The translations under genes and the position numbers were made by a program. DNA of 64,000 nt from Leucoraja ocellata (Eukaryota). This document shows, one piece after another, positions 10,611 through 56,300 of this stretch. The stretch lies in NCBI GenBank assembly GCA_036785375.1, contig JAWMAR010000531.1, positions 868,001-932,000 on the forward strand, in the 5' to 3' direction. The notes beneath the pieces were generated by a model. It did no database searches, had not been told where the DNA came from, and was given only the letters and a program-made list of their open reading frames with translations. Position 1 is the first letter of the stretch, and every line of letters starts with the position of its first letter.

Positions 10611-13600
10611 ATGGCTGTATGGGTTTGGGTTCTCGCCTTGGTGACCTGTTTCCACTGTGAGTAGAGCGCAGAATAATTAATGCTGTATCGTTTTACATTC
10701 TGCTGTGTTTTTTTTTCTAATGGTTCTGTATATTTATCTGTTATTTCTATCAGCTATAAACGCGGAGACTACCTTGACTCAGCGCCCGGCTATATCACAA
10801 TCGCCGGGAACAACCGTGAAAATCACCTGTACACTGTCAGGGGGCAGCATAAGTAGCTTCTACACGAGCTGGTACTGGCAGAAGCCGGACAGCAGCCCTG
10901 TCTTGGTGTGGTATCAAACCACCAGAGGCACCGGAATTCCAGACCGATTCACGGGATCCGTGGTCTCATCCACGAACCAAATGCATTTAACCATCACCAA
11001 CGTGCAATCGGAGGACGCGGCCGATTATTACTGTGATGTGTGTGCCCATGGTACCTACATAACCACATTCGGGAAAGGAACCAGACTGAATCTAAGCAGT
11101 AAGTAAAGTATTCACGGTGTGAAACAACAAATCGTTGAACTTGGGTTTTGCTTTCCATCACAAATCCTCGGTAGAAATATCCTATTAGACCTAAGTAGAA
11201 CACAACGGGTCAGCCAGCATCTCCGGTAGACGTATAGATGGGCAATGTTTCGTGTCGGAATCTTTGCGAGACTTTCCCGAACGGAAATATCATCTTTCTT
11301 TGTCCTCCAGAGATGCTGTCTGATCCGCTGGATTACTTCAGCACTTTGTGTTGTACTCAAGATGCCAACATTCGCGGTTCCCTGTTTCTCCTACGTGAAC
11401 TTGTTTTTTTTTTTTAATAATCCTTTACCTCCATCCCTACAACACTCCGGGAAATCTGCGCTCATCTATCCGTGGCTACTTGATCATCGTGGAATTTAAC
11501 GCCTTCACAGACTGGCAGCTGTGCTTCAAATGCGAAGTTGTTAAATTCTGTAATGATCTGAAAGTCTATTTCCCACTTTCTTCCCTGATGTTCACGAAAC
11601 CTGCTCCTATAACAGGAATACTGATTCTCTGATTTGAAGTATCCTCAAGTGGCGGGTTTCATATGAGACTGCTGCTATTGGTCACTTTGCTTCAATATAA
11701 GCGGAATGCAAACCAAAACTGTTGCCGTTACTTGAACAAATGTTCGGGAAATTATGAGATTTCATTAACTTACAGTATATTGTGGACACGGATAATACCA
11801 ACTCTGAGAGTGGGCCAAATAGAATCATTGGAAACATCCAAAGGAAAGTTAATAAACATTTGGCAAGGGATGTCGGTGAATTTAAATGGGATATTTTTGG
11901 AATTGCAAATACCCATTAGGGCAAATTGCGCGAAGTTGATTTCTGATCGTTTTAATGATACCATGAGGGTGAAGTGGCGTTTAGACAGGTTTACACGCGC
12001 TCCCTACAACAGCGCTAAAACTAATTGTCAGGGAAAAGGTTAAAACCAAAATTTAAACGCTTCGCACGGCAGCATTTCAATTCCCTTTGCGCGAAAGCGT
12101 GGAGGATTGTTGCAAGTCTGATTCAGCTCCGAAATTAGAAACAAGAGCAGAACCGGATTCTGGTTCATTCCTCGTTCAGCGAGCCATTGCCACCTTAGCT
12201 GATCACATTTGTGTGGATATGCCGTCAGACTCTTTGTACCCTTGACTCTTGTAGAACCTGCAAGGGATTTTGATGCTGGTTCTCCGATTGCCATCGAGTG
12301 TATGATATAGCAGAAAACGCAGACTGTTCATTATGCTGTTAAACATGATCCCTCTGAGTGTTGATTTTTTTATGGGCAGGCAGTTGGTAGACCGACATGT
12401 CAAAAAAGCTTCAAGGAGCGAGACATAATTTTGCCATTTTCGTATAAATTAATGCAGAAATGGGCACACGTGTATACGAGGTTATTGCTGAATTGCCTTG
12501 AATCGTACGATTGGAAGGAAATAGTACAGCGTCTTTAAATTCAGCATTAGCTTGAAATGTTTTTTAAAGTCCGAATATGTTGGATGTTAAACCCAGAGCT
12601 GTCTGGACATGTGTCAGAAGGAATTTGAATCTGACCAAAACATTTCTTTAGTTTTATCTTTCATTTTTCTGACCGCCACCATCATTGAATCATGGACTTT
12701 CTGGACGATGTGGAAGATTCACTAATAAGTAACATTCTAAAGACTGTTCCGGGATAGAATTGGGATTACTATTTAAACAAGCATTAATTTGGAAATGCTG
12801 CTCATTCTGCCAGGATGAGTTGTATTTACATTTTTCTGCCCGTTTCCATGATCTGTAGAAAATCGTATGTTATATGTTTTACCAAACCTCGGATATACCC
12901 CCATAAAAATTAACTTATCATGATTCTGCTGTATAAAATGAGGTTTATAAATGAACGGTAGTTGTAAAGCCAGTGCAGTACACGGCCATAGAGCCACTGA
13001 GTTATGCAGCGGTGGAACAGTCCTTCAGTCCACCTATTTCATGCCGACCGGGTTGCCCTACTTGAGCTGGTCCCATTTGCGCGTGTCAGGCCCATATCTC
13101 TTTGAACCTTTCTTATCCAAGTATTAATTCAAATGTTTATTTGAATGGTGTTATTGTACCAGCCTCATCAACTTCTCTGGGGAACTCATTCCATGGGGTC
13201 AACGCGTTATGTGTACAAATGTTGCCCTGAACCTAAACCCACTAATTCTTCATTCTCCTACTACGGGGAAAAGACTCCATGCGCTAACCCTATGTATTCC
13301 CCTCGCGATTTTGTAACCGCCATGCGATCACCCTAAGGTCTTCTACACTCCAAGGACTAACGTCCTCGCATATCCAACCTATGCCTATAGTTCAGGCGTT
13401 CGAAACCTGGCACCGTCGGCATATATCTTGCCTGGAGTCATTCCAGCTGAATCGATTCTGACTTTTCAATCAACTGATAAATAATTCATTTGTATTTATT
13501 TCAATTCTTTATTTCCAGGTCCGCGCTCCCCCACCGTTTCCATTCTGGCGCCATCAATGGGTGAAGTCACCGCAAAAAGTACCGCCACCCTGGTGTGTTT

Positions 13601-13841
13601 GGTGAGCGGGTTCAACCCGGGCGTTGTGGACATTAAGTGGACCGTGGACGGCAGTGCGAGAAGTGACGGCGCTGCGACCAGCCGGGTCCAGCAGGAGAAT
13701 GGCAACTCGTTCAGTGCGAGCAGTTACCTGACTCTGCCAGCCGCCTACTGGAACTCACACGAGCTTTACTCCTGTGTGGTTAAACACGACACCCAGGCAA
13801 CCCCGATTAAGGCCAACATCGCCAGATCCAGTTGCCTCTAA
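10611..13841 (+). CDS. IGL: Immunoglobulin light chain G1 (lambda / elasmobranch type II), germline-joined VJ cluster. Exons: leader 10611-10656, L2+VJ 10754-11098, C 13519-13841
   Basis: Spliced by hand: MAVWVWVLALVTCFH-S-INA/ETTLTQ...KITC...WYWQKP...DAADYYC-DVCAHGTYITT-FGKGTRLNLS-S-PRSPTVSILAPS...ATLVCLVSGF...KW...YSCVVKH...RSSCL*. Both introns are GT-AG and phase 1. V and C1 domains have canonical Cys/Trp, and there is a penultimate Cys for the H-L bond. Isotype assigned from recalled motifs (WYWQKP, GIPDRF, MHLTITNVQSEDAADYYC). Confidence 0.95.
11197..11352. repeat. Decayed inverted (palindromic) pair of the same Penelope-like repeat, ~100 bp into the J-C intron of all four genes
   Basis: Left arm (cgggtcagccagcatctccgg) is the reverse complement of the right arm (ccagagatgctgtctgatccg). 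Confidence 0.55.
12985..13400 (-). mobile_element. Highly decayed CR1-like 3' fragment in the J-C intron (all four genes)
   Basis: catagag...ggaacagtccttcagtcca...ggtcccatttg...ggcccatatctct, resembling the reverse complement of the CR1 end at ~950-1050. Confidence 0.5.
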
Positions 13842-14020
13842 TTCAAAGGATCAAATTCCCAATTTGCTCCATTTCTTTGTAAATTAATCCAATATTCAGA
13901 TATGGAATGTTCGCTTTAACAGGGTATTTGTTCAAACACAGCACGTGTGCATTTTGTTGCCGTAAATGCGCTGTTGGTATTTTACGATGAACTGAAAACC
14001 GATAATGTAACATTTAATGC

Positions 14021-14026
14021 AATAAA
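14021..14026 (+). terminator. Poly(A) signal of G1
   Basis: AATAAA 180 nt after the stop codon, conserved in all copies; a second AATAAA follows 70 nt later. Confidence 0.75.
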
Positions 14027-15740
14027 ACAGATTATTCTACTTACGATGCCTCGTTGTAATTTTCTGTGCAAATGTCCTTGCCTTCAATAGAATAAAAACA
14101 ATAATGTCCGATGATGCCAGTGTGTAGAAACTGGTATTTTGTGAAACTTTGTTATATTTCAAATAAACTGCGGTTTCATGATTGATCGTAGATCCATGTG
14201 TTAGGACAGTTGAAGGGACCGCTTGCACATACCCCCCCCCCCCCCCCAGATTGAAGATATTAGGTGCAAACCAGTGGGGCGGGGGGGGGGGGGGGGGGGG
14301 TGGTTGAAGGGGGGATTCGCAACCACAATTAACCGGAGTAAAAGTAGTTACTTCGCGATTCCCAGAAATGGGATAAACAGCTTTCGGGACATGGCAACTG
14401 CTTGGATGTTCTTCTCTGGGAATAAAAAAAGCATGTTTAACAGGGGGAATAAATTGTGCAAATCTGGGGGAAATCTGCTTCCGATGTGAGTGTCCTATCT
14501 GGAGAGATTCTCTACTACGATGTCAGTTTCCAGTAGTACAATAACAGGTTCGGGACGTGTGCTGTCTATTTTTATCCCATCCCTTCCTCCACGGTTATCA
14601 TTCACTCCCTTCCCCCCTTATTTTGTGGCTGATTTCATTTCTTGTTCCTTTTCACCCACAGCCTTTGCCAATTAACCCCCCGCCCCATCTGCTAATCAAC
14701 CCCCTCTCACATGTATCCACCGATCTATCACTTGGCCAGCTGTATCGCACCTCATATCTATTTTACACATTTACCTCCTCTGTTCCAGGGGCACGGCCTG
14801 AAATGATGCCTCGCCTTTCTAATCAGCTGTTGCCTGACCCGTCAAGTCATGTGGAGTCCAATGGCGAAGTCTTGTTTTGCTCGATTTGTACGGTATTATG
14901 ACCACCTCTCTGATCGAATTTACCTCTTCAATCCACTTCTTGTCAGACTTTTCCATGATCTACATTGATATCCTACACCCAGTTGCAAGTCGAACATATC
15001 CATGCTTTGTCCCCATTTTCCTACCTCCGCGAGGCTTCCTTTACTTTTGATGGGCGACGGGTATTTTGGAAATACTGGTCAGCGTTTAGTGTTTCATCAA
15101 CGCAGTATTCCTCAACCTCCATACGAGCTTGGATATTTGGCCCAGTAAGCTCCACGGCGCCACGTGGTTTATTTACAAGAGGTAGTTCAAACAGGTACTA
15201 TAACAACATTTAATAAACATTTGGACAGGTACATTGTTTAGAGGGACACGGGCCACCGCGGGCAGGTGGGACTTGTTGGGCCGAAGGGCATTTTCCTACT
15301 GAATAACTCATAGTGATACTTTTTTTAAATGAAAATAGGTGCAGGAGTAGGCCATTCGGCCCTTCGAGCCTGCACCGCCTTTCAATATGATCACGGCTGA
15401 TACATGCTTACAGCAGAAATGATCGGGACCTGTACAAAAAGAAGCCCAGTTGGCAGGGGAATGCGGGGGCTGGTGGGCAGGAGAACTCATCTCTGTACCG
15501 TAAAATAAAGTTGTCTGGCTGCTCACAATAACACAAGATGTAGCTTCGAGTAAATGTTCATCCTGCATGAAGTGGCGCTGCATTCGACGATGTTCTGTGG
15601 TCCCTGCAGTTATCTTGCTCTTAGATGCTGAATCAATCCAAAAATATTGACATAATCTGCAGCACCTTTGGTATATTTACAGTTCTTGTCATTTATGGGG
15701 AGGCAAATGTAAACTGCTTGATGTGAAAATGCTGGTAATG

Positions 15741-17098
15741 TCCAAGATGCAATTCGGTGCATTAAAACAATATATCAGGAGCCTACAGCTAGGATTAAGG
15801 TAAATGGAAACATATCAAAACGGATCCAGTTAGAGAGGGGCACAAGGCAAGGATGCTGTCTTTCTCCTACTCTCTTCGTTTTGTATATTGAACCCTTAGC
15901 ACAAGCAATAAGGCAGAGAGAAGACCTGCAGGGGGTCAAAATAGGGGGGAAAGAACATATCATTGGTCTTTTCGCTGATGATATCATTATTTTTCTTGAA
16001 CGACCAGATATATGTCTGCCAAATGTAATGAACCTATTTGAAACAAATGGATGCTACTCATGGTATAATGTGGCAGTATAATGTGGATAAATGTGAGGTT
16101 ATCCATTTTGGTGGCAAAAACGGGAAAGCAGACTATTATCTAAATGGTGGCCGATTGGGAAAGGGGGAGGTGCAGCGAGACCTGGGTGTCATGGTACACC
16201 GGTCATTGAAGGTAGGCATGCAGGTGCAGCAGGCAGTAAAGAAAGCGAATGGTACGTTAGCTTTCATTGCAAAAGGATTTGAGTATAGGAGCAGGGAGGT
16301 TCTACTGCAGTTGTACAGGGTCTTGGTGAGACCACACCTGGAGTATTGCGTACAGTTTTGGTCTCCAAATCTGGGATACGGGATAAAATGATTTCTAGAT
16401 TCATTTGGAATAGCAAAAAAACAAGAATAAAACTAACAACACTTCAACTGCCGAAAAGCAAGGGTGGAATGGCTTTACCAAACCTGAGGAAATACTTTTA
16501 TGTAGCTCAACTCAGACCTCTGTTGGTGTAGACCTGATTATGAATCTCGATGGAAAGAAATTGAAAGGGAGATACAGGGTTACCAGATCCAGACTTTGGT
16601 GGGACACTAATATCTGAGAGGGGCTTTGAGACACGCTATGGACCACATAGTAGCATTTACGCTAGAAATATGTAATGTTATAGTGGAAAAATACAAATTA
16701 AAAAGAGGGGTTCACGCATTGAAGTGGTTCGCATATGACTCAAAGTTTAACCAGGGGTGTTTGATTCAAAATTCAAAGAATGGGCACAAAAAGGCATAAT
16801 GGCAATGTATACAGTTTCAGAAAATGGCGAGTTTATGAGCTTCCAAGATTTAAAGTCAAAGTCTGGTCTCGAAAACAAAGATTTTTTTAGAAACTTGTAA
16901 TTAAGAGACTACTTTACAAAAGAGATAAGGCCAGAACTAGATGAAACTTCAAATAATGTGATCAAGGTGATTGTGGATGCATACAAACAGAAGGGGTCTC
17001 GGGTCAACTCTGCTTTCTACCAAGCTCTGATGGGAAGCGGGGGAGAATCAACGCTCTACATAAAAACAAAATAGGAAGCAGAATTAAAGATTCAGATA

Positions 17099-17176
<78 letters not shown>

Positions 17177-18440
17177 GTTTATTTATATAGCACATTTATA
17201 GTCAATTTTCATTGACCCCAAAGTGCTTTACATAATTTAAAAATCAGTTCCATACAAAGCATAAAGATGGGTTAACAAAATAATAAAATGCATAAACAGG
17301 ACACAACATGTAACATAAACATCCACCACAGCATTCATCACTGTGGTGGAAGGCACAAAAAATTTTGGCCGTCCTCTTCCATTCCCCCCCCCCCCCCCCC
17401 CCCCCCCCGTGTACAAGACCAGAGTCCAGAGTCCATTCCAGGATCGGTCTTTCCTCACCGGAGACCGCGGCTTCAAGATTGTGTAGGCCGCAGGCCGGCG
17501 GTTGAGATTTAAAGTCCCCGCCGCAGCCAGAAGCACCGTAGACTGCAGGGCCGGCGGTCGAAGCTCCCCTCCAGGGGTGATGGTAAGTCCATGCCGGGCC
17601 CGCGGTAGAAGTTATCCGTGGGCCAGCAATGGCGGCTTCTTCTTCCCCCATAAGAAGAATGGTATCAAATGTGTGAAACACAATGTCCTTCCACAAGCAC
17701 ACTAGTATGGAAAGAGTTTTGCTGGAAGAATCTATCTCGCTTTTTTTTATAAGCAGCAAACTCGCTGTCCAACAACACTGTTTGAGGCTGTGTGGGAGTA
17801 CGGAGGCAGACCACTCGCATATTTTCTGGAACTGTGTAAAGATAAGGCCATACTGGGAAAATGTTAATGCAGCTGTAAAAAATATCTTGGGTTATAAAAT
17901 CCCAAATACCTGCCATGTGATGTATCTGGGGCGTATTAAAGATATTGTAAAAATAAAAGATACATATTTGATTAAAGTTTTGCTTGCAGCAAGTAAGAAG
18001 GCCATTACCAGGCAGTGGCTTAATGAAAAAGTCCAAAACAGGAACAGTGGTTAGAAATTGTGCGAGACATCTTTAATATGGAGAAATTGACATATTCCTT
18101 GAGAGTCAAGGAAAATTCATTTGAGAAGATCTGGGAATAATGGACCATTTATTTGAGCCATGACACCAATTAGATAAATGCCGAGCTAGATATGGGAAGA
18201 TTGCGTTATATAAAACTAGATGGTATGTTTGTATGAATATTGAATTATCTCCAGATAACTAATCAATGTAGTGTTTTTGCTTTTTTTAAGTTGGTAAAGT
18301 GAACCACACGGTCTTATTCCAATTTTTTTTTTAATTTACTTCTTTTATTTCTCCTATCTACTTATTTTTTTATTTTGATTGTTGTTTTTCTTACTTTGTT
18401 TTATTTATGGTGATGGTGTTGCACGGTTTTGTATATATCT
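15741..18440 (+). mobile_element. Decayed L1/Tx1-clade LINE, U2 copy
   Basis: [14 protein letters not shown]...IEPLA...[10 protein letters not shown] motifs plus the C-terminal Cys motif. Confidence 0.85.
16069..16379 (+). mobile_element. Internal CR1-like RT fragment replacing part of the L1 (U2)
   Basis: [13 protein letters not shown]...RDLGV...KKANG.LAFI...LYRVLVRPHLEYCVQFWSP, typical of CR1 ORF2; absent from U1 and U4. Confidence 0.85.
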
Positions 18441-21400
18441 CTTAAGAAACAAAGAAAATAAGTTGACCATTTGACCGCGTGGGCAGAAGATACTGATGCA
18501 GTCTCCGATTATAACGGTAGATGGCGCTGCCGTACCTTACATCTGTGATGAAGCTCAACGCGGCCAATTCTGAAATGGGTCAAACGCAATATTGTGTCTG
18601 AGGTCACGTACAGGCCAGACCAGCAATAATTGGATTATTTTCCCCTTGAAGGATATATTTGGGATCCAGTTGTTTTGTAATAATCAATCATACAAACTGA
18701 TGTTTCTTTTGAAATATTCCAGACACTTAACATAATTTAGATTCCACACCTTCCCTGTTGAAATATGTCTGGATATGTGGTCAAGGCCTTTGCGTGATGT
18801 GATTTCGGTTTGAAACCATTGCTTATCTTCACTTCCTTCACCTTTGCAGGGAGCGAATAGGAGGAATCTTTCACTGCATAAAAATATTCTTCTTTCACAG
18901 TTTTCCGATTCAGCCACGGTTTAACCAAAGCTTGAGAGGTAACCTCTCCGCTTACTCGATACTTCATTCTTTGAAACCTCACATATATCACAGGTTTTTG
19001 CTCACTACTCTGTCATATGCTGAGATAATAGAGCAGCTGGGCTTGTGCACTCTGAAGGATGAGAGGATATCTCATTGAAACATATACGATTGTTAAGGGT
19101 TTGGACACGCTAGAGGCAAAAAATATGTTCCCGATGTTGGAGGAATCCAGAACCAGGGACCACAGTTTAAGAATAAGGACTAAGCCATTTAGAACGGAGA
19201 CGAGGAAATACTTTTTCTCATAGAGAGTGGTGAGTGTGGAATTCTCTGCCTCAGAGGGCAGTGGAGGCAGGTTCTCTGGATGCTTTCAAGTGAGAACTAG
19301 ATAGGGCTCTTAAAAATAGCGGAGTCAGGGGATATGGGGAGAGGGTGGGAATGGGGTACTGATTGGGGATGATCAGCCATTGAATGGCGGTGCTGGCGCG
19401 AAGGGCCGAATGGCCTCATCCTGCACCAATTGTCTGTAGTCTATTGTCTACTCTCGCGATATATCTTTCTACCTTGGCAGATGTGTGCTCATGAACACCA
19501 AGTCCCTCGGTCCCTGCGAACTTTGAACCCACATTGCCTCCCCCTCTGCCCCTCCCCTCCACACACGAGGCAAACTATACAAGCTCATACTTCTCTGTGA
19601 TAGGTTTCATCCATCATTTACCTACTCATTCTCCTGTCATATTGAAGTTTGAAGTGCTCGCTGAATACTCTCTCTCCCTCTCCTGCGTGTAAGCCGCTAT
19701 TCCATCATGATTGTTGATGCGAATATATTGCTATTGGTACAGAACATAACTAGTTATGGGGATAGTGGAGAATTAAATCATTGGCCAGAATGCTCGTGCA
19801 TACTGAATGTGAATAATGGGAATGTTACCTCCGGGAGAGACTTTAATATTTTTTTTGGACAAACATGAAGACAGTTGCAAACAGGATTTTGTACATTTTA
19901 GTGGGTTTTGGTCCCAGGATTTTAGCCTCAGGTTTTCCATCTATCCAATTTGCCAAGGTGTTGAGTGTCAATGAAAGTCATAAAGATTTAAACAACGACG
20001 CATGACATAAATAACTGAACATTGTTCTCTTAAAAGAAACAAACAGAAAATCCAATTACAACTCATTTTAAACCGAGAACTCTTGTTTGCAGAAACATCG
20101 CAGACACGTGGACTGTGAGGCATTGAAATAGAGGCATTGACGCTCCTTCGCGGATGCAGTTGTTTGCTGGACCCGGGACACGTCATCCACAATGTTAATG
20201 CTTAGAATTTAAAGCTGCTAACTCTCTCCACCACTGCTCCATCAATAACTAACTGGCCTGAGGTCCCCGGACTTCCTCTTTCTGAAGTCAGCGACCAGTT
20301 CGGTCTTGTTGCTTTGGAGCGAAAGATTGTTGTTCTGACACCACTCAACCAAGTGTTCCGTCTCTCTTCTCTATGTTGACGCAGCACCATCAGTGATTCA
20401 TCCAAACAGAATGGTGTTGGGGGTGGATCAATAGATGACTTTGGAGCTGTGGGTGTAAAGGAAGTAGAACAGGATGTAAAGAGCGCAGCCTTGAGATGCA
20501 CTGTGTTGCTGGTCAATGGGGAGGAGATGATGTTCCCCATCCGCAATCGGTCACTTGAAGCTAATTCACCAAACAGTAAAATAGTGACTAATCTGATTGT
20601 AACCACTGAACTGTAGTCCCATCCACCTTGTTTATTAGGAATATGTCTGCCTTTGGAAAAAAATAAAGACTGCTTCTACCACATTTTCAGAAACGTAATT
20701 GATGAGGCTTTCTCCATTCTGAGAGATGTGTTTTGTTTCTTCACTTTTTGAAGTAGGTATTTATTTTTTGTGTTACCGGTGACGTTTAGTTTTAGATTAT
20801 CCCAGACGAATTGTCCTCTCCCTTCACATGCTGTTAAGACCCCGCATAATCACCTGTGCTTCAATTAAAGCAACTCTCATGCTTCTAACTGTCGAGCAAT
20901 TCCTCATAAGTCTATTAGTAACCATTTTCTGAATTGCTTCAAAGGCATTTACATTTCAATACTCTGCTCGATTATGCGATGAAGTATAACTGAAACACTA
21001 AGACCCTTTCTCTTTTGTATTCGGTTTTTCTGGCGTTAGATGCAAACACTGCTACCTTTCCTAGGTAGTTGTTGTACCTCTTTCTAGCCTGTGGCGAATC
21101 CTCACCAACAAATCGAAATAATTCTGCATCTCAAAACACTGAAAATTGTCAAAATGTAAATATGAAGGGCCTCGACCCGAAACGTTAACCATACCTTCTC
21201 TCCAGAGATGCTGCCTGTCCCTCTGAGTTACCCCAACTTTTTGTGTCTATATTGTAAAGAACATTCTTTTGTATCACTTATCCTGCCAAAATTGACATTT
21301 CACATGTTCCCACATCCCGCATTTACCAGGCCTTTGCCCATTCACTGGAACTATCCACATCCACGGTGGCCTTGTTTTGTTCTTCATGTCATTAACAAAT

Positions 21401-21569
21401 TCAACAGCCAACATTTTTTTTAGCATTTTTGGAAATTGTGGCTGCAGCAGTGATCTATGAGGCACATCAGTTTTTGCATCTTTCCAACCCGAATTTTCCC
21501 TATTTATGCGTGATCTATGTTTCAAACGAATCGCCCAATGTTCTTTTCTTAACCATAAATACCAAGACT

Positions 21570-22625
21570 CGTAGAAAATAGGTGCAGGAGTAGGCTATTC
21601 GGCCCTTCGAGCAGCACCGCCCTTCAACATGATCATGGCTGATCATCAAAAATCGATATCCCGTTCCTGCTTTCTCCCCATATCCCGTGGTTTCATCAGC
21701 CCTAAAAGCTGTATCTAACTCTCTGTTGAATACAACCAGTGATTTGGCCTCCACTGCCTTCTGTGGCAGAAAATTCCACAGATTCACAACTCTCTGCGTA
21801 AAAAAAGTGTTTCCGCATCTCTGTCCTAAATGGCCTACCATTTTTTTAAACTAGGACGCCTGGTTCTGGATTCCCCCATCATCGGGACCATTTTACATGC
21901 ATCTAGTGTATCCAATCCCTTAAGAATGTTATATGTTTCTATAAGAACCCCTCTCATCCAAAATTCCAGTGCATATAAGCCCACTCGATCATATGTCAGT
22001 TCCACCATCTCGGGAATTAATCTGGCGAACCTACGTTGCACTCCCTCAATAGCAAGAATGTCCTTCCTCAAATTTAGAGAACAAAACTGCACACAATACT
22101 CCAGGTGTGGTCTCACTAGGGCCCTGTACCACTGCCGTCGGACCACCTTGTTCTTATACTCAAATCCTCTCGCTATGAAGGCCAACGTGCCATTCGATTT
22201 TCTTCACTGCCGACTGCACCTGCAAGCTTTCTTTCAGTGACTGATGTTCAAGGCCACCCAGTTCTGGTTTCACCTCCGCCTTCCTGTTTTTGCCACCAAA
22301 GTGGATAACCTCACATGTATCTACGTTATACTGCATCTGCCATGCACCTGCCCACTCACCTATCCTATCCAAGTCACCCTGCAGCCTCAGAGCACCCTCC
22401 ATGCTGCTCACACTGTCACCCAGCTTTGTGTGATCAGCAAACTTGGAGATGTTGCATTTAATTCCTTCATCTTAATCGTTAATATATATTGTTAATAACT
22501 GAGGTCCCAACATTGAGCCTTGCGGCACTAGTCACTGCCTGTCATTCTGAAAAGGACCCGTTAATTCCTACTCTTTGCTTCCTGTCTGCCATATAGTTCA
22601 CCATCCATGTCAATACCCTACCCCC
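21570..22625 (-). mobile_element. CR1-like LINE (U2)
   Basis: Paralogue of 7015-8105. Confidence 0.85.
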
Positions 22626-24626: not shown

Positions 24627-24690
24627 CCAATAATTCAGTGAATCGGTGTCACGTGGATAAAGATTTGCATGAATAATTAATAATTAGTGA
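24627..24690 (+). promoter_or_regulatory. Ig light-chain promoter of G2 (octamer ATTTGCAT 24663-24670, CACGTG, CCAAT)
   Basis: Same motifs and spacing as G1. Confidence 0.9.
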
Positions 24691-24769
24691 CTGAAGACTT
24701 TAAAAGAGAAACTTGGAAAGGGCTCAAAACCGCGCTTGTGCAGCAAAATATTCCCTTATAACCTTCAAC

Positions 24770-41300: not shown

Positions 41301-41535
41301 CGGGTTCAACCCGGGCGCTGTGGACATTAAGTGGACCGTGGACGGCAGTGCGAGAAGTGACGGCGCTGCGACCAGCCGGGTCCAGCAGGAGAAGGACAAC
41401 TCGTTCAGTGCGAGCAGTTACCTGACTCTGCCAGCCGCCTACTGGAACTCACACGATCTTTACTCCTGTGTGGTTAAACACGAAACCCAGGCAACCCCGA
41501 TTAAGGCAGACATCGCCAGATCCAGTTGCCTCTAA
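38339..41535 (+). pseudogene. IGL: Immunoglobulin light chain G3, germline-joined VJ with a frameshifted C exon. Exons: 38339-38384, 38481-38825, 41212-41535
   Basis: Leader and VJ are intact (CDR3 AVWDDSKKKFT). The C exon is 324 nt rather than 323 because of a C6 run at 41221-41226 (C5 in the other three copies). The spliced frame reads SPRSPHRFHSGAING* with TGA at 41256-41258. A homopolymer sequencing error cannot be excluded. Confidence 0.7.
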
Positions 41536-41714
41536 TTCAAAGGATCAAATTCCCGATTTGCTCCATTTCTTTGTAAATTAATCCAATATTCAGATATGGA
41601 ATGTTCGCTTTAACAGGGTATTTGTTCAAACGCAGCACGTGTGCATTTTGTTGCCGCGAATGCGCTGTTGGTATTTTACGATGAACTGAAAAACGATAAT
41701 GTAACATTTAATGC

Positions 41715-41720
41715 AATAAA
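41715..41720 (+). terminator. Poly(A) signal of G3
   Basis: AATAAA at the homologous position. Confidence 0.75.
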
Positions 41721-43758: not shown

Positions 43759-46482
43759 TCCAAGATGCAATTCGGTGCATTAAAACAATATATCAGGAGC
43801 CTACAGCTAGGATTAAGGTAAATGGAAACATATCAAAACGGATCCAGTTAGAGAGGGGCACAAGGCAAGGATGCTGTCTTTCTCTTACTCGCTTCGTTTT
43901 GTATATTGAACCCTTAGCACAAGCAATAAGGCAGAGAGAAGACCTGCAGGGGGTCAAAATGGGGGGAAAGAACATATAATTGGTCTTTTCGCTGATGATA
44001 TCATTATTTTTCTTGAACGACCAGATATATGTCTCCCAAATGTAATGAACCTATTTGAAACAAATGGATACTACTCAGGGTATAAACTGAATATAACAAA
44101 AACACAAATTATTTCATTCAATTATACTCCATCCCAACAAATCAGAGATGCATATAATCTGGAATGGAATTCTAAAACGATGCAGTATCTTGGTGTAACT
44201 ATAACCAAAACACTTTCCAACTCGTTTGAAACTAATTATAACAAAATTGAAGAAAACATCAAAAAGGATGTTGAAAGGTGGTCGACCCTTTCCCTAGACT
44301 TCAGTGCCAGAATACAAACGGTAAAAATGAATATCCTACCTAAACTACTATATTTATTCCAATCTCTCCCAATTAATGTCCCCCGAGATAAATCCATAGC
44401 CTGGGATAAAATGGTCTCTAGATTCATTTGGAATAGCAAAAAAACAAGAATAAAACTAACAACACTTCAACTGCCGAAAAGCAAGGGTGGAATGGCTTTA
44501 CCAAATCTGAGGAAATACTTTTATGTAGCTCAACTCAGACCTCTGTTGGTGTAGACCTGATTATGAATCTCGATGGAAAGAAATTGAAAGGTAGATACAG
44601 GGTTACCAGATCCAGATTTTGGTGGGAGACTAATATCTGAGAGGGGCTTTGAGACACGCTATGGACCACATAGTAGCATTTACGTTAGAAATATGTAATG
44701 TTATAGTGGAAAAATACAAATTAAAAAGAGGGGTTCACGCATTGAAGTGGTTCGCATATGACTCAAAGTTTAACCAGGGGTGTATGATTCAAAATTCAAA
44801 GAATGGGCACAAAAAGGCATAATGGCAATGTATACAGTTTCAGAAAATGGCGAGTTTATGAGCTTCCAAGATTTAAAGTCAAAGTCTGGTCTCGAAAACA
44901 AAGATTTTTTTAGATACTTGCAATTAAGAGACTACTTTACAAAAGAGATAAGGCCAGAACTAGATGAAACTTCAAATAATGTGATCAAGGTGATTGTGGA
45001 TGCATACAAACAGAAGGGGTCTCGGGTCAACTCTGCTTTCTACCAAGCTCTGATGGGAAGCGGGGGAGAATCAACGCTCTACATAAAAACAAAATAGGAA
45101 GCAGNNNNNNNNNNNNNNNNNNNNNNNNNNNNNNNNNNNNNNNNNNNNNNNNNNNNNNNNNNNNNNNNNNNNNNNNNNNNNNNNNNNNNNNNNNNNNNNN
45201 NNNNNNNNNNNNNNNNNNNNNNNNNNNNNNNNNNNNNNNNNNNNNNNNNNACATTTATAGTCAATTTTCATTGACCCCAAAGTGCTTTACATAATTTAAA
45301 AATCAGTTCCATACAAAGCATAAAGATGGGTTAACAAAATAATAAAATGCATAAACAGGACACAACATGTAACATAAACATCCACCACAGCATTCATCAC
45401 TGTGGTGGAAGACACAAACAATTTTGGCCGTCCTCCTCCATTCCCCCCCCCCCCCCGTGGACAAGACCAGAGTCCAGAGTCCAGTCCAGGATCGGTCTTT
45501 CCTCACCGGAGACCGCGGCTTCAAGATTGTGTAGGCCGCAGGCCGGCGGTTGAGATTTAAAGTCCCCGCCGCAGCCAGAAGCACCGTAGACTGCAGGGCC
45601 GGCGGTCGAAGCTCCCCTCCAGGGGCGATGGTAAGTCCATGCCGGGCCCGCAGTAGAAGTTATCCACGGGCCGGCAATGGCGGCTTCTTCTTCCCCCATA
45701 AGAAGAATGGTATCAAATGTGTGAAACACAATGTCCTTCCACAAGCACACTAGTATGGAAAAAGTTTTGCTGGAAGAATCTATCTCGCTTTTTTTTATAA
45801 GCAGCAAACTCACTGTCCAACAACACTGTTGGAGGCTGTGTGGGAGTACGGAGGCAGACCACTCGCATATTTTCTGGAATTGTGTAAAGATAAGGCCATA
45901 CTGGGAAAATGTTAATGCAGCTGTAAAAAATATCTTGGGTTATAAAATCCCAAATACCTGCCATGTGATGTATCTGGGGCGTATTAAAGATATTGTAAAA
46001 ATAAAAGATACATATTTGATTAAAGTTTTGCTTGCAGCAAGTAAGAAGGCCATTACCAGGCAGTGGCTTAATGAAAAAGTCTAAAACAGGAACAGTGGTT
46101 AGAAATTGTGCGAGACATCTTTAATATGGAGAAATTGACATATTCCTTGAGAGTCAAGGAAAATTCATTTGAGAAGATCTGGGAATAATGGACCATTTAT
46201 TTGAGTCATGACACCAATTAGATAAATGCCGAGCTAGATATGGGAAGATTGCGTTATATAGAACTAGATGGTATGTTTGTATGATTATTGAATTATCACC
46301 AGATAACTAATCAATGTAATGTTTTTTCTTTTTTTAAGTTGGTAAAGTGAACCACGGTCTTATTCCAATTTTTTTTTTTAATTTACTTCTTTTATTTCCC
46401 CTATCTACTTATTTTTTTATTTTGATTGTTGTTTTTCTTACTTTGTTTTATTTATGGTGATGGTGTTGCACGGTTTTGTATA
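43759..46482 (+). mobile_element. Decayed L1/Tx1-clade LINE, U4 copy (most complete)
   Basis: RT motifs plus the 169-aa ORF at 44045-44554. Confidence 0.85.
45105..45250. other. Assembly gap (146 N) at the position of the (TAA)n microsatellite in U4
   Basis: Flanks match the sequence either side of the (TAA)n tract in the other units. Confidence 0.95.
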
Positions 46483-47068
46483 TCTATTATCTATTATATA
46501 TATAAAACTCAAATCCGTCCGTCCGCCTGCAGTACGGATCCCTTCCTGCCTTTCGATTCGTGCCCGATAGTCGCAGATGTCGAATCGGAATGGCCGATGC
46601 TCGCAGATGTCCAATCGGAATGGATTCATTTGCATGTACGGCTGCCGGCTGCATTTCTTCCTTTGATTCATTGCCACGCCCAATCCAGACGCTCAATCTC
46701 CGAGATATTTTCCATTTCGGTAGAGATTTCGCTTTTCTTTCTAAGTAACCGCTCCTCATTTCATTTCGTCGTGCTGAAGTACATGTTTTTAATCAAATCC
46801 TTCTCCCCCCCCCCCCCCCCACACACCCCCAAGTATTTCACAAATAAACATGCTTCTCCATTTACATGTCAGCTTCCAACACACTTCGAAACAAAATTGC
46901 AAGAGAGGAACACTGAACTTATCACTGCTGCAGCAGGCAGGGGAGGGCTGCAATCTTACATTTGGGAACGGGCTCAGTTCCAATGGAGGAGGCGGGTGCA
47001 TGGCGGAATATTGGGTTGGGGGATCACACCATTGGGGGAGCAGCCCAACGGGTCTGCACTTGGTCTAG
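46483..47068 (+). mobile_element. Non-autonomous Helitron (586 bp), private to U4
   Basis: 5' TC(TATTATCTATTATATATATAAAA), 3' CTAG, subterminal hairpin GCAGCCC-AAC-GGGTCTGC (47040-47057). Inserted between A and T with no TSD; the empty site ttttgtata^tatctcttaa is present in the other four units. Confidence 0.9.
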
Positions 47069-50000
47069 TATCTCTTAAAAAACAAAGAAAATAAGTTGAC
47101 CATTTGACCGCGTGGGCAGAAGATACTGAAGCAGTCTCCGATTATAACGGTAGATGGCGCTGCCGTACCTTACATCTGTGACGAAGCTCAACGCGGCCAA
47201 TTCTGAAATGGGTCAAACGCAATATTGTGTCTGAGGTCACGTACAGGCCAGACCAGCAATAATTGGATTATTTTCCCCTTGAAGGATATATTTGGGATCC
47301 AGTTGTTTTGTAATAATCAATCATACAAACTGATGTTTCTTCTGAAATATTCCAGACACTTAACATAATTTAGATTCCGCACCTTCCCTGTTGAAATATG
47401 TCTGGATATGTGGTCAAGGCCTTTGCGTGATGTGATTTCGGTTTGAAACCATTGTTTATCTTCACTTCCTTCACCTTTACAGGGAGCGAATAGGAGGAAT
47501 CTTTCACTGCATAAAAATATTCTTCTTTCACAGTTTTCCGATTCAGCCACGGTTTAACCAAAGCTTGAGAGGTAACCTCTCCGCTTACTCGATACTTCGT
47601 TCTTTGAAACCCCACATATATCACAGGTTTTTGCTCACTACTCTGTCATATGCTGAGACAATAGAGCAGCTGGGCTTGTACACTCTGAAGGATGAGAGGA
47701 TATCTCATTGAAACATATAAGATTGTTAAGGGTTTGGACACGCGAGAGGCAAAAAAACATGTTCCCGATGTTGGAGGAGTCCAGAACCAGGGACCACAGT
47801 TTAAGAATAAGGAGTAAGCCATTTAGAACGGAGACGAGGAAATACTTTTTCTCACAGAGAGTGGTGAGTGTGGAATTCTCTGCCTCAGAGGGCGATGGAG
47901 GCAGGTTCTCTGGATGCTTTCAAGTGAGAGCTAGATAGGGCGCTTAAAAATAGCGGAATCAGGGGATATGAGGAGAAGGCGGGAATGGGGTACTGATTGG
48001 GGATGATCAGCCATTGAATGGCGGTGCTGGCGCGAAGGGCCGAATGGCCTCCTCCTGCATCTATTGTCTGTAGTCTATTGTCTACTCTCGCGATATATCT
48101 TTCTACCTTGGCAGATGTGTGCTCATGAACACAAAGTCCCTCGGTTCCTGCGAACTTTGAACCCACATTGCCTCCCCCCCCCCCTCCACACACGAGGCAA
48201 ACTATACAAGCTCATACTTCTCTGTGATAGATTTTATCCATCATTTACCTACTCATTCTCCTGTCATATTGAAGTTTGAAGTGCTCGCTGAGTACTCTCT
48301 CTCTCTCCTGCGTGTAAGCCGCTATTCCATCATGATTGTTGATGTGAATATATTGCTATTGGTACAGAACACAACTAGTTATGGGGATAGAGGAGAATTA
48401 AATCATTGGCCAAAATGCTCGTGCATACTGAATGTGAATAATGAGAATGTTACCTCCGGGAGAGACTTTAATATTTATTTTGAACAAACATCAAGACAGT
48501 TGCAAACAGGATTTTGTACATTTGAGTGGGTTTTGGTTCCAGGATTTTAGCCCCAGGTTTTCCTATCCAATTTGCCAAGGTGTTGAGTGTCAATGAAAGT
48601 CATAAAGATTTAAACAACGACGCATGACATAAATAACTGAACATTGTTAAAATAAAAGAAACAAACAGAAAATCTTCTTAAAAGAAACAAACAGAAAATC
48701 CAATTACAACTCATTTTAAACCGAGAACTCTTGTTTGCAGAAACATCGCATACACGTGGACTGTGACAGAAAATACACAGGAATAAATGATACATAAATT
48801 ATACATGTACATCAGAAAGAAAGAAACAAGATTGCGATCAAAAACATAATAATAAAAAACACGTCGATAGTGTACAAGTTTTGGGGCATAGTGTCCCGTT
48901 ATGGAGGCAGGATTAGGGGTATGTTGGTCCTTCCAAAATCGGGATAGTTGTAGGTAAGTAGCTGTTCTTAAACCGGGTGGTGTACATTCTGTAGTAGATC
49001 TGTAAACGTTTGTTGGAGTATTTGGAGACAAAGTATTTTTTTAAATTCTTTGAAAGTAGAGGCATTGGCGCTCATTCGGTGATGCATTTGTTTGCTGGGC
49101 CCGGTGTTAATGCCTAGAATTAGTTATAATCAGTTATAACCCTCTCCACAACTACTCCACTAAAACAAACTGGCCTGGGGTCTCCGGACTTCCTCTTTCT
49201 GAAGTCAGCGACCAGTTCCGTCTTGTTGCTTTGGAGCGAAGGGTTGTTGTTCTGACACCACTCAACCAAGTGTTCCGTCTCCCTTCTCTATGTTGACGCA
49301 GCACCATCAGTGATTCATCCAAATAGAATGGTGTTGGGGATGGATCAATAGATGACTTTGGAGCTGTGCTTCATTCCACGTGTGTACAGGAAGTAGAACA
49401 GGGTGTAAAGCCGCAGCCTTGAGATGAACTGTGTTGCTGGTCAATGGGGAGGAGATGATGTTCCCCATCCGCACTCGGTCACTTGAAGCTAATTCACCAA
49501 ACAGTAAAATGGTGACTAAACTGATTGTAACCTCTGATCTGCAGTCCCAGCCACCCCTGGTAACATATCACTACCCCACCTTGTTTATTATGAATATTTC
49601 TACCTTTGGAAAAAAAATAAAGACTGCTTCTACCACATTTTCAGAAACGTAATTGATGAGGCTTTCTCCATTCTGAGAGATGTGTTTTGTTTCTTCAATT
49701 TTTGAAGTAGGCATTGATTTTTGTGTTACAGGTGACGTTTAGTTTTAGATTACCCCAGACGAATTGTCCTCCCCCTTCACATGCTGTTAAGACCCCGCAT
49801 AATCACCTGTGCTTCAATTAAAGCACCTCTCATGCTTCTAACCGTCGACCACTCGCTCGTTGCAGATATGGGTCTATTAGTAATCATTTTCTGAATTGCT
49901 TCAAAGGCATTTACATTTCAATACTCTGCTCGATTCTGCGATGAAGTATAACTGAAGCACTATCAACCTCTCTCTTTTGCATTAGTTTTTTTTCTGACGT

Positions 50001-50549
50001 TAGATGCTAACACTGTTACCTTTCATAGGTAGTTGTTGTACCTCATTCTAGCTTGTTGCGTATCCTCACCAGGGAACCGAAATAATTCTGCATCTCAAAA
50101 CACTGCAAAAAGTCATAGTGTAAATAAGAAGGGTCTCGACCCGAAACGTCACCCATTCCTTCTCTCCAGAGACGCTGCCCGTCCCGCTGAGTTAGTCCAG
50201 CATTTTGTGTCTATATTGTAAAGAACATTATTTTGTATCAGTTACCCTCCCAAAATTGACATTCCACATGTTCCCACATCCCGCATTTGCCAGGCCTTTG
50301 CCCATTCACGGGAACTATCCACATGCACGGCGGCCTTGGTTGGTGCTTCATGTCATTAGCAAATTCAACAGCCAACATTTTGTAGCTTTTTTGACTGTGT
50401 GTAAACATTTTTGGGAATTGTGGCTCCAGCAGTGATCTATGAGGCACATCAGTTTTTGCATCTTTCCAACCAGAAATTAGCCTGTTTATGCGTTTTCTAT
50501 GTTTCCAACTAATCTGTTCTTCCGATTTCCATAAACACCAGCACTCTCA

Positions 50550-51620
50550 GTAAAAAGGAGCAGGAGAAGACCATTCGGCCCTTCGAGCTGCACCTCCATT
50601 CAATATGATCATGGCTGATAGTCCAAAATCAGTACCCCGTTCCTGCTTTCTCCCCTATCCCTTGATTCCGTCAGCCCTAAAAGCTATATCTAACTCTCTC
50701 TTGAACATATCCAGTGAATGGCCTCCACTGCCTCCACTTGTATGGCAGAGAATACCACAGTCACAACTCTCTGGGTAAAAACGTGTTTCCGCATTTCAGT
50801 AAGGCCCTACCCCTTCTTTTTAAACTGCAACCCCTGGTTCTTGACTCCCCCAACATCGGGCATATATTCCCTGCATCTAGCGTATCCAACCTCTTAAGAA
50901 TTTTATATGTTTCTATAAGAACCCTTCAAATCCTTCAAAATTCCAGTGCATATAAGCCCTGTCAATCATTTGTCAGTTCCACCATCCCGGGAATTAATCT
51001 GGTGAATTTACGTTGCACTCTTTCAATAGCAAGAATGTCCTTCCGCATATTAGGATACCAAACCTGCACACAATACTCCAGGTATGGTCTCACCAGGGCC
51101 CTGTACAACTGCAGTAGGTCCTCCATGCTCCTGCACTCAAATCCTCTCGCTATGAAGGCCAACGTGTCATTTGCTTTCTTCACTTCCGACTGTACCAGCA
51201 TGATTTATTTCTGTGACTGGTGTTCAAGGACACCCAGGTCTCGTTGCACCCCCCCCCCCCTTTCCCTAATCTGACACCATTCGATTATAATCTGCCTTCT
51301 TGTTTTTGCCCCCAAAGTGGATAACCGCATATTTATGCACAAAGTACTGCATAATCTTGTCCAGGTCACCCTGCAGCCTCCTAGCATCCTCCTCGCAGCT
51401 CACACTGCCACTCAGCGTTGTGTGATCCGCAAACATGGAGATGTTACATTTAATTCCTTCATCATCGTCAATATATCTTGTAAATAACCGAGGTCCCATC
51501 ACCGAGCCTTGTGGCACGCCACTAGTCACTGCCAGCCATTGTGAAAAGGACCCGTTAATTCCTATTCTTTGCTTCCTGTCTGCCATACAAGCTCTCCATC
51601 CATATCAATAACCTACCCCC
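50550..51620 (-). mobile_element. CR1-like LINE (U4)
   Basis: TSGVPQGSVMGP...FADHT RT motifs. Confidence 0.85.
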
Positions 51621-53230
51621 AATGTTACCATATTATTTACCATATCAACCTTCGATTCATCACCTTATCAAATGCCTCCTCGAAATTATACCTGCCTGGC
51701 ATTGTACTTCTTCAAAGCCTTTGGTTAAATTGGTGAAACATCGTTCATGAATTCATAAATTGTAGGATAATTAGGCCATTTGGCCCATCAATTCTACCTC
51801 GCAATCCTATCACGCTTGGTTTATCTTTTCTTCTCAACCCCATTCTCCTGACTTCTTCTCATAACCCTTAACACTGTTACTAATTAACAACCACTCAATC
51901 TCCACCTTAAAAATATCCATCGACTTGGCTCCCACAGCCTCCTGCGGCAACGAATTACACAGATTCACTACCCTCTGTCTAAAGGAATTCCTCCCCATGT
52001 CCTTTCTAAATAGACGTGCTTTTATTCTGAGGCTTTCACCTCTGGTCCTAGGCTCCCCCGCTCGTCGAAACATCCACTCCACATCCACTCTATCCGGGCC
52101 TTTCACGATTCGGTTAATTTCAATGAGGTCTTCCCCCCCTCTCGTCCTTATAAAGTATATAGCGAGCACGGACACAGTGCCGTCAAACGCTCATCACATG
52201 TTAACCCAATTATCCCTGGAATCCCCCTCGGAAACCTCCTCTGGACCCTCTCCAACGCCAGCTCATCCTTCCTCAGATTGGAGCCGAAAACTGCTCACCA
52301 CACTCCAAATGCGGTCTGACCAGTGTCTTATAAAGGCTTAGCATTACATTCCTGTTTTTGTATTTTGTTTTTGTGTTCTGGCCCTCTCCAAAGAAATGCT
52401 TTCCTTACTACCGACTTGTAAATTAACTTCACCACCCTGCACCAGCACTCCCAAGCCCCTCTGCTCTCATTTCTAAATTATCTCTCTTTCTCAACAACAT
52501 TTTGACTTTTGCGAGATAACCTGGATCATTTTGTCAGTGCCCTTTATATCGATTGGGTAACAGCTTGCAATATTTCTCCAGGACAGATGTGCAACCAACT
52601 GGCCTGCGGTGGACGACTTTCTGTCTCCCCTTCTGGATAAAAATGAATACCAAGGAACGTCCATGGTAGTTTTGAAATAAAAAAACTCAAAGCAATGAAT
52701 TCAGCGCTGCAACGGAATGAATTAAGACTCCAGAATGCAATACAATACATCTTAACGCCCTGTCAGCCCGTGTCTCTATCGACTTCCTAATGATTGCAAC
52801 TTTTGTGAGTTTGTTTCTTGCTTCCGTGTCTGCAGCCGTTTCTGTGATGTTAAGTCCATGTTCTGTGGAGCAGACCGATGAAAAATTACCATTTAATTTA
52901 TCTGTCATCTCCATGTTCCCCTTTAATTATACGGCTGCGAATTATTTGTAGGAAAAGGACAAATGTATTATTTTATAATTATTTGGAAGCTTAAGGTGAT
53001 TAGTGCAAAGTCTCTACAGTGCCACCATTCAACACAGCTGACACCGTTTACTCAGTAAATAAGAGCCTGCTCTCACACAACAGTTCCCGTGTGAGTCTCA
53101 GAGCTTCTCTCCCCCTCCCCCCGCCGCCGTTGAGTTCACTGTTGTCTGCTATTCTCCTCCCACTTAAAACAACATGAATATTTTTTTCTCCCAAAGGGCT
53201 GGAGCTGCAGAAATATCATTTTACCCCGAG

Positions 53231-53293
53231 CCAATAATTCAGTGAATGGATGTCACGTGGATAAAGATTTGCATGAATAATTAATAATCAGTG
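53231..53293 (+). promoter_or_regulatory. Ig light-chain promoter of G4 (octamer 53267-53274)
   Basis: Same motifs and spacing as G1. Confidence 0.9.
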
Positions 53294-53373
53294 ACTGAAG
53301 ACTTTAAAAGAGAAACTTGGAAAGGTCTCAAAATCGCGCTTGTGCAGCAAAATATTCCCTTATAACTTTCAAC

Positions 53374-56300
53374 ATGGCTGTATGGGTTTGGGTTCTCGCC
53401 TTGGTGACCTGTTTCCACTGTGAGTAGAGCGCAGAATGATTAATGCTGTATCGTTTTACATTCTGCTGTGTTTTTTTCTAATGGTTCTGTATATTTATCT
53501 GTTATTTCTATCAGCTATAAACGCGGAGACTACCTTGACTCAGAGCCCGGCTATATCACAATCGCCGGGAACAACCGTGAAAATCACCTGTACACTGTCA
53601 GGGGGCAGCATCGGTAGCTTCTACACGAGCTGGTACTGGCAGAAGCCGAGCAGCAGCCCTGTCTTCGTGTGGTATGAAGGCTCCAGAGGCACCGGAATTC
53701 CAGACCGATTCACGGGATCCGTGGTCTCATCCACGAACCAAATGCATTTAACCATCACCAACGTGCAATCGGAGGACGCGGCCGATTATTACTGTGCTGT
53801 GTGGGACAACAGTAACGACAAATTCACCTTCGGGAGAGGAACCAAACTGAATCTAAGCAGTAAGTAAAGTATTCACGGTGTGAAACAACGAATCGTTGAA
53901 CTTATGTTTTGCTTTCCATCACAAATCCTCGGTAGAAATATCCTATTAGACCTAAGTAGAACACAACGGGCCAGCCAGCATCTCCGGTAGACGTATAGAT
54001 GGGCAATGGTTTGTGTCGGAACCTTTGCGAAACGTTCCCGAACGGTAATATCATCTTTCTTTGTGGACCAGAGATGCTGTCTGATCCGCTGGATTACTTC
54101 AGCACTTTGTGTTGTACTCAAGATGCCAACATTCGCGGTTCCTTGTTTCTCCTACGTGAACTTGTTTTTTTTTAAATAATCCTTTACCTCCATCCCTACA
54201 ACACTCCGGGAAATCTGCGCTCATCTATCCGTGGCTTCTTGATCATCGTGGAATTTAACGCCTTCACAGACTGACAGCTGTGCTTCAAATGCGAAGTTGT
54301 TAAATTCTGTAATGATCTGAAAGTCTATTTCCCACTTTCTTCCCTGATGTTCACGAAACCTGCTCCTATAACAGGAATACTGATTCTCTGATTTGAAGTA
54401 TCCTCAAGTGGCGGGTTTCATATGAGACTGCTGCTATTGGTCACTTTGCTTCAATATAAGCGGAATGCAAACCAAAACTGTTGCCGTTACTTGAACAAAT
54501 GTTCGGGAAATTATGAGATTTCATTAACTTACAGTATATTGTGGACACGGATAATACCAACTCTGAGAGTGGGCCAAATAGAATCATTGGAAACATCCAA
54601 AGGAAAGTTAATAAACATTTGGCAAGGGATGTCGGTGAATTTAAATGGGATATTTTTGGAATTGCAAATACCCATTAGGGCAAATTGCGCGAAGTTGATT
54701 TCTGATCGTTTTAATGATACCATGAGGGTGAAGTGGCGTTTAGACAGGTTTACACGCGCTCCCTACAACAGCGCTAAAACTAATTGTCAGGGAAAAGGTT
54801 AAAACCAAAATGTAAACGCTTCGCACGGCAGCATTTCAATTCCCTTTGCGCGAAAGCGTGGAGGATTGTTGCAAGTCTGATTCAGCTCCGAAATTAGAAA
54901 CAAGAGCAGAACCGGATTCTGGTTCATTCCTCGTTCAGCGAGCCATTGCCACCTTAGCTGATCACATTTGTGTGGATATGCCGTCAGACTCTTTGTACCC
55001 TTGACTCTTGTAGAACCTGCAAGGGATTTTGATGCTAGTTCTCCGATTGCCATCGAGTGTATGATATAGCAGAAAACGCAGACTGTTCATTATGCTGTTA
55101 AACATGATCCCTCTGAGTGTTGATTTTTTTTATGGGCAGGCAGTTGGTAGACCGACATGTCAAAAAAGCTTCAAAGAGCGAGACATAATTTTCCATTTTC
55201 TGATAAATTAATGCAGAAATGGGCACACGTGTATACGAGGTTATTGCTGAATTGCCTTGAATCGTACGATTGGAAGGAAATAGTACAGCGTCTTTAAATT
55301 CAGCATTAGCTTGAAATGTTTTTTAAAGTCCGAATATGTTGGATGTTAAACCCAGAGCTGTCTGGACAAGTGTCAGAAGGAATTTGAAACTGACCAAAAC
55401 ATTTCTTTAGTTTTACCATTCATTTTTCTGCCCGCCACCATCATTGAATCATGAACTTTCTGGACGATGTGGAAGATTCACTAATAAGTAACATTCTAAA
55501 GATTGTTCCGGGATATAATTGGGATTACTATTTAAACAAGCATTAATTTGGAAATGCTGCTCATTCTGCCAGGATGAGTTGTATTTACATTTTTTCTGCC
55601 CGTTTCCATGATCTGTAGAAAATCGTATGTTATATGTTTTACCAAACCTCGGATATACCCCCATAAAAATTAACTTATCATGATTCTGCTGTATAAAATG
55701 AGGTTTATAAATGAACGGTAGTTGTAAAGCCAGTGCAGTACACGGCCATAGAGCCACGGAGTTATGCAGCGGTGGAACAGTCCTTCAGTCCACCTATTTC
55801 ATGCCGACCGGGTTGCCCTACTTGAGCTGGTCCCATTTGCGCGTGTCAGGCCCATATCTCTTTGAACCTTTCTTATCCAAGTATTAATTCAAATGTTTAT
55901 TTGAATGGTGTTATTGTACCAGCCTCATCAACTTCTCTGGGGAACTCATTCCATGGGGTCAACGCGTTATGTGTACAAATGTTGCCCTGAACCTAAACCC
56001 ACTAATTCTTCATTCTCCTACTACGGGGAAAAGACTCCATGCGCTAACCCTATGTATTCCCCTCGCGATTTTGTAACCGCCATGCGATCACCCTAAGGTC
56101 TTCTACACTCCAAGGACTAACGTCCTCGCATATCCAACCTATGCCTATAGTTCAGGCGTTCGAAACCTGGCACCGTCGGCATATATCTTGCCTGGAGTCA
56201 TTCCAGCTGAATCGATTCTGACTTTTCAATCAACTGATAAATAATTCATTTGTATTTATTTCAATTCTTTATTTCCAGGTCCGCGCTCCCCCACCGTTTC

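Follow-up and report, generated by a model that had tools for sequence, protein, structure and literature searches.

A 64,000-nucleotide (nt) stretch of the Leucoraja ocellata genome (assembly GCA_036785375.1, contig JAWMAR010000531.1, positions 868,001 to 932,000 of the forward strand), referred to as the window, carries four of the six tandem germline-joined immunoglobulin (Ig) lambda (type II) clusters of an array on its contig. In all four genes, G1 to G4 in order along the window, the variable (V) and joining (J) segments are fused in frame in genomic DNA and are followed by a single constant (C) exon. The complementarity-determining regions (CDRs) of these genes, above all CDR3, differ far more than the DNA around them. 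The most likely mechanism is diversifying selection on the CDRs within an array that is homogenised by gene conversion, with a probability of roughly 70%. Under this mechanism, the CDRs would have diverged by ordinary germline mutation under a selective pressure that acts on the antigen-binding site, and conversion between copies would have kept the frameworks, introns, and constant exons alike. Because joined genes are without junctional diversity, the germline would have to supply the diversity.

A search of the genome for lambda loci, in which 150 of 443 candidates were scored, yielded 57 parsed lambda loci and one that was not parsed. Among them are 12 close copies, half of them on the window's contig (C531:864771-936259) and half on a second contig (C384:151442-220378). 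These copies are called the window's subfamily; subfamily borders and CDR limits follow the definitions of this analysis, and the diversity values refer to the 12 copies unless another subfamily is named. CDR3 diversity is 0.246, approximately eightfold above non-coding DNA (mean 0.030, maximum 0.126 over 2954 overlapping 33-nt windows), and 22 of the 33 CDR3 sites vary. Replacement and silent diversity (piN/piS) are 0.092/0.021 in CDR1, 0.191/0.069 in CDR2, and 0.267/0.179 in CDR3, compared with 0.012-0.044/0.018-0.053 in the frameworks (FRs) and 0.020/0.013 in the C exon. The J-C intron has a diversity of 0.030, and the leader intron, at 0.010, is the least variable part. The flank diversity profile covers positions 10200-14190 only, since insertions are misaligned outside this range.

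The initial annotation had described four hyper-divergent CDR3s of equal length, and its description of the window is accurate. The four loops are all 11 amino acids (aa) long (DVCAHGTYITT, DVCHSSTYIFT, AVWDDSKKKFT, and AVWDNSNDKFT). G1 and G2 differ at 10 of 24 nt in CDR3 codons 4-11 and at 8 of 279 plus 2 of 33 nt in the remaining exon, G3 and G4 differ at 5 of 33 CDR3 nt, and the variants in CDR1, CDR2, and the FR3 loop are as described. Equal length does not extend to the whole array, where CDR3 is 11 aa in 10 of the 12 copies and 9 aa in the other two. The adjacent-base changes quoted there are present but mostly resolve into single steps through other copies: TTC, TCC, and ACC all occur, as do CAA, GAA, and GGA, while a single step separates GCC, and likewise CAC, from the majority codon GAC.

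Replacement changes exceed the intron rate in all three loops, with 27 against 2.8 expected in CDR3 and 12 against 3.6 expected in CDR1 and CDR2 together (p=0.0004). Synonymous changes in CDR1 and CDR2 occur at the intron rate (2 against 1.3). A GY codon model gave a CDR omega of 2.57 (p=0.011 against 1) and a framework omega of 0.66; CDR1 and CDR2 alone gave 4.4 (p=0.017). The codon-model comparison of loops and frameworks that the initial annotation had proposed supports its suggestion of positive selection. Three sister subfamilies of lambda genes had CDR omegas of 2.67, 2.99, and 1.85 (p=0.002, 0.025, and 0.20), and the combined p for CDR omega is 0.0001. The most variable loop differs by subfamily, being CDR3 in the window's subfamily and CDR2 in the sister subfamily F2 (piN 0.264, piS 0.034). 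Since the piS of this F2 loop lies below the intron value, it fits selection better than a mutator.

In each unit, a promoter octamer precedes the leader exon, the fused VJ exon, and the single constant exon, and the encoded domains are Pfam V-set and C1-set. The parts in the window are as follows.

1..64000, forward strand: tandem array of approximately 14.2-kb units, spaced 13.7-15.0 kb apart, filling the whole window
10504..10511, forward strand: G1 promoter octamer (same motif at 24663, 38232, and 53267)
10611..10656, forward strand: G1 leader exon
10754..11098, forward strand: G1 germline-joined VJ exon, with a V-set match
10967..11034, forward strand: invariant FR3 block directly 5' of CDR3 (0 of 68 columns vary in 12 copies)
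11035..11067, forward strand: G1 CDR3, 11 aa
13013..14187, forward strand: conversion tract shared by G1 and G4, covering the distal J-C intron, C exon, and 3' flank
13519..13841, forward strand: G1 constant exon, with a C1-set match
24770..24815, forward strand: G2 leader exon
24913..25257, forward strand: G2 joined VJ exon (CDR3 at 25194-25226)
27676..27998, forward strand: G2 constant exon
38339..38384, forward strand: G3 leader exon
38481..38825, forward strand: G3 joined VJ exon (CDR3 at 38762-38794)
41212..41535, forward strand: G3 constant exon, with a frameshift in the assembly that comes from an additional C in the run 41221-41226
53374..53419, forward strand: G4 leader exon
53515..53859, forward strand: G4 joined VJ exon (CDR3 at 53796-53828)
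56279..56601, forward strand: G4 constant exon

Gene conversion between these units is evident. The share of incompatible pairs among neighbouring informative sites (165 in all) is 0.25; after shuffling it is 0.45, and none of 2000 permutations fell to the observed value. Different regions also support different trees. Across the 1.17 kb of 13013-14187, no difference separates G1 from G4 at 102 consecutive polymorphic sites, whereas the longest such run in 300 permutations was 48. Despite this shared tract, their CDR3s differ at 12 of 33 nt. A search of the whole assembly for a donor of the G1 CDR3, using a 26-nt pattern with up to three mismatches, matched G1 alone; conversion thus appears as a homogeniser and shuffler, not as a source of new CDR3 sequence. 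The earlier proposal of micro-conversion stands insofar as copies do convert each other, mainly in long tracts that keep introns and C exons uniform, but not as templated micro-conversion into CDR3. Conversion that overwrites a CDR3 may be selected against, or may stall at the mismatched loop, in which case CDR3 lineages would outlive their flanks. In the proximal J-C intron, G2 and three copies on the second haplotype share a divergent block (11179-11255 in G1 coordinates), whatever their CDR3 group. The raised diversity at 11171-11260 is this one block shared by four copies and not a scatter of hits.

The unique flanks of the two contigs are collinear and 1.0% divergent (368 of 36,598 nt), so the contigs are read as two haplotypes. 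Across the 12 copies, pairwise unit divergence ranges from 1.35 to 4.42%. The last unit alone is nearest its positional partner; elsewhere, alleles at matching positions are no more similar to each other than paralogues are. There are 11 different CDR3s among the 12 copies, and none is common to both haplotypes. Unequal exchange may turn the array over fast enough to account for this. Loop length has also changed after duplication: the two 9-aa CDR3s belong to sister copies and align as a single 6-nt in-frame deletion, and three of the 12 copies have a 3-nt insertion in CDR2. One copy on the second contig (L011, C384:177782-178102) has four private replacement changes inside 12 nt of CDR1.

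Several observations weigh against selection on the loops as a full account of the divergence. CDR3 alone has an omega of 1.8, which is not significantly above 1 (p=0.23), and its piS of 0.18 is about six times the 0.030 of the intron. Single-tree codon-model tests can be inflated by recombination. Old CDR3 lineages predict linked silent differences, yet the 68 nt just 5' of the loop do not vary at all, and over the first 72 bases of the intron the two CDR3 groups are only 0.048 apart. The private changes of G1 number 5 in the 64 nt of CDR3 and FR4, against 1 in the 2289 nt of its J-C intron. The F2 V exon, in addition, has a polymorphism excess at hotspots of somatic hypermutation, described below. 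Such an invariant stretch of FR3 is unexpected under simple linkage to old lineages unless conversion tracts stop sharply at the loop. The block at 10967-11034 is identical in all 12 copies at silent sites too and adjoins the most variable stretch.

The alternative that survives best, though we consider it unlikely, is that CDR3 is locally hypermutable by a route other than AID, such as slippage in the A-rich loop or error-prone repair where conversion tracts end. CDR3 would then be weakly constrained, with much of its divergence being fast drift and selection acting mainly on CDR1 and CDR2. The high CDR3 piS, the non-significant CDR3 omega, and the sharp diversity peak beside an invariant 68-nt neighbour are all in its favour, as are a 9-A run, present in G3 and in one copy on the second haplotype, and the position of the 6-nt deletion between short repeats. 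The raised piS is, however, carried by two to five events (p=0.21, 0.054, and 0.002 for 2, 3, and 5), of which only two or three are firm. None of the 12 CDR3s contains a stop or frameshift despite 32 inferred changes, and CDR3 piS is only 0.05 in F2 and 0.00 in the subfamily F3a.

The initial annotation had also suggested germline AID-like activity. In its general form, this explanation holds that AID or shark-type hypermutation acts occasionally in germ cells or early embryos, or that a mutated V was returned to the germline, with selection sorting the variants; we regard it as improbable. Hypermutation of nurse shark T-cell receptor alpha places 38-51% of changed bases in tandems of 2-4 nt and favours DGYW/WRCH motifs 4.3-fold (PMC5931798). 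These marks are not seen in the window's subfamily, and the suggestion finds no support there. Polymorphisms at WRC/GYW motifs number 8 against 9.6 expected (odds ratio (OR) 0.69, rank 74 of 108 motif classes). WRCH motifs are not enriched in introns either, with pooled ORs of 0.80 for the leader introns and 1.04 for the first 300 nt of the J-C intron, and there is no spread of mutation into the transcribed non-coding flank (leader intron diversity 0.010). Adjacent changes on the same carriers make up 1 of 43 derived CDR alleles, 1 of 22 in the frameworks, and 8 of 346 in non-coding DNA, which is no tandem excess in a test that loses tandems later re-hit or reshuffled. The footprint test is weak inside CDR3, where two-thirds of the sites vary. 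CpG and WA/TW contexts had no consistent effect (WA OR 1.71, p=0.026, in the distal intron only).

F2 differs in this respect. This subfamily has an 8-aa CDR3 and about 21 copies outside the window (loci L062 and L065-L088, at C531:977388-1040830, C384:819784-937357, C4271, and C4817). Its V exon has 19 WRC/GYW polymorphisms against 11 expected (OR about 4.3, p about 0.001, rank 1 of 108 motif classes, 18 copies), and the excess survives five stratifications, which take account of CDR, degeneracy, CpG, amino acid, and the variability of codons (OR 4.0-9.1, p=0.0006-0.005). F3a gave an OR of 4.2 (p=0.015, unstratified), and the four subfamilies pooled gave 1.4-2.1 (p=0.014-0.17). The excess is absent from the F2 non-coding flank (OR 1.09) and from the three subfamilies other than F2 taken together (OR 1.06). 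Four subfamilies were tested, and a signal limited to the exon fits hotspots placed where change is tolerated. Found in one of four subfamilies and only in the exon, the F2 excess is a lead, not a result. The further claim that AID-type machinery mutates joined lambda genes in the germline, leaving a heritable WRC/GYW-biased V-exon footprint that is visible in F2 but that saturation and selection have overwritten in the window's subfamily, is improbable. If true, hypermutation would feed the inherited antibody repertoire.

The F2 tests used 18 of the 21 close copies; L061, L082, and L086 were dropped as partial or frameshifted. F3a comprised 7 copies and F3b 6; divergent or broken loci, namely L013-L018, L023, L026, L027, L030, L083, and L084, were left out. 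F2 and F3 yielded no exact octamer, and the segment termed octamer-to-leader is in these subfamilies the upstream kilobase.

For the differences to be somatic mutations from lymphocyte DNA, or assembly errors, is very improbable. The homopolymer frameshift in G3 may be an error of this kind, but most CDR3 variants recur in several copies from both haplotypes. Many of the same substitutions, along with the 6-nt deletion in CDR3 and the insertion in CDR2, also occur in contigs of four public runs, one of which may be the source sample, and one of these contigs differs from the G3 CDR3 region at just 1 of 163 nt. The CDR variants are inherited.

Equally hard to sustain is an origin of the CDR3s in several independent RAG/TdT joins in germ cells, as in nurse shark NS4 kappa, where independent germline joins are documented (PMC2193156). 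The initial annotation had argued from identical CDR3 length against such joins and for diversification after the duplication of one joined gene. Its conclusion stands, as whole units are 1.4-4.4% divergent, but length is no proof of it. In favour of independent joins, CDR3 is 9 or 11 aa in the window's subfamily and 6, 8, or 9 aa in its neighbours. Tabulated over the 57 parsed lambda loci, lengths range from 6 to 11 aa, and of the 39 more distant loci 37 have a CDR3 of 8 aa. Two neighbouring lambda genes, L014 (C384:239365) and L016 (C531:952455), have a 6-aa CDR3. The two 9-aa copies, however, are sisters (39 differences, against 67-146 in the other listed pairs) that align as one 6-nt deletion, and the CDR3 variants are connected by single steps. 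None of the 57 parsed lambda loci is a split V flanked by a recombination signal sequence (RSS); all are joined and have no heptamer after the second Cys, and a heptamer after V was found only in an IgH-like control. A canonical RSS was likewise not found within the 64-kb window. For a comparison of junctional trimming and N or P nucleotides, the parsed loci offer no unjoined template, and the change in CDR3 length aligns as a 6-nt deletion. Whole-unit identity and the lack of split, RSS-flanked lambda V genes among the 57 parsed loci, not CDR3 length, argue for one join followed by duplication, which holds for the window's subfamily, and independent joins are here already largely refuted. Older independent joins may separate the lambda subfamilies.

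Judged by sequence similarity, the window genes are germline-joined Ig lambda (type II) clusters and not kappa or sigma types. Their best named relatives are sandbar shark Ig lambda chains at 69% and 64% identity, the two named among four matches, and the matches in the PDB were confined to generic mammalian light chains. Three further joined genes in the same genome (L089-L091, on C94 and C230), presumably sigma-cart-like, are 42-46% identical to the window genes and were the only such genes found in the genome search. Full light-chain reading frames are present in G1, G2, and G4, which may be expressed in B cells and paired with a heavy chain. In G3, the extra C causes a frameshift and an early stop in the C exon; it is found in 1 of the 12 copies and may be a real change or a homopolymer error.

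In the cartilaginous-fish species studied, all lambda genes are germline-joined (PMC4279169, PMC5192425), and nurse shark NS3 is non-rearranging (PMC2435157). Like the window genes, sandbar shark lambda, at the 69% identity given above, and NS3 have one leader, a fused VJ exon, and a C exon per cluster. They differ in number, with about 57 lambda loci in the present two-haplotype assembly against six in nurse shark. Raja has at least 89 type I clusters, all joined, that differ mainly in the CDRs, with more replacement than silent changes (Anderson et al. 1995, PMC2192082). These clusters resemble the window's in their CDR-focused replacements and differ in isotype, being type I, or sigma-cart, as opposed to lambda type II; the genome search found only three sigma-cart-like genes, far below the 89 clusters reported for Raja. 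In NS4 kappa, VJ is also a germline fusion, which RAG probably made in germ cells, but split sisters stand beside five independent recent joins (Lee et al. 2000, PMC2193156), whereas the window's subfamily has no split sister and one join. Shark somatic hypermutation likewise produces mostly replacement changes concentrated in the CDRs (PMC5931798, PMC4279169), but its hotspot bias and tandems are absent from the window's subfamily. A literature search, which did not reach Hohman 1993, Rast 1994, or Lee 2002, found no description of conversion tracts, per-loop omega, or haplotype turnover in a lambda array.

That lambda genes are all joined, and that replacements in the joined genes of skate centre on the CDRs, is thus already in print (PMC4279169, PMC2192082). 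The present array refines a picture that dates from 1995 by providing a haplotype-resolved example of how non-rearranging antibody genes gain diversity, with selection on the loops, conversion elsewhere, and turnover fast enough that the two chromosomes of one animal have no CDR3 in common. Because the join, introns, and constant exon are inherited together, the array contains its own neutral baseline, which makes the old and contested claim of a hypermutation signature in germline V genes (PMC4763540) directly testable. The window's subfamily answers no, and the F2 hotspot excess is the sole lead worth replicating.

Two minor observations were made elsewhere in the genome. The lambda locus L017 has a frameshift in FR4. 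L092 and L093 (on C76 and C5) belong to a V-exon family with a contiguous J-like end that lacks FGxG, and this family is interleaved with another V family.

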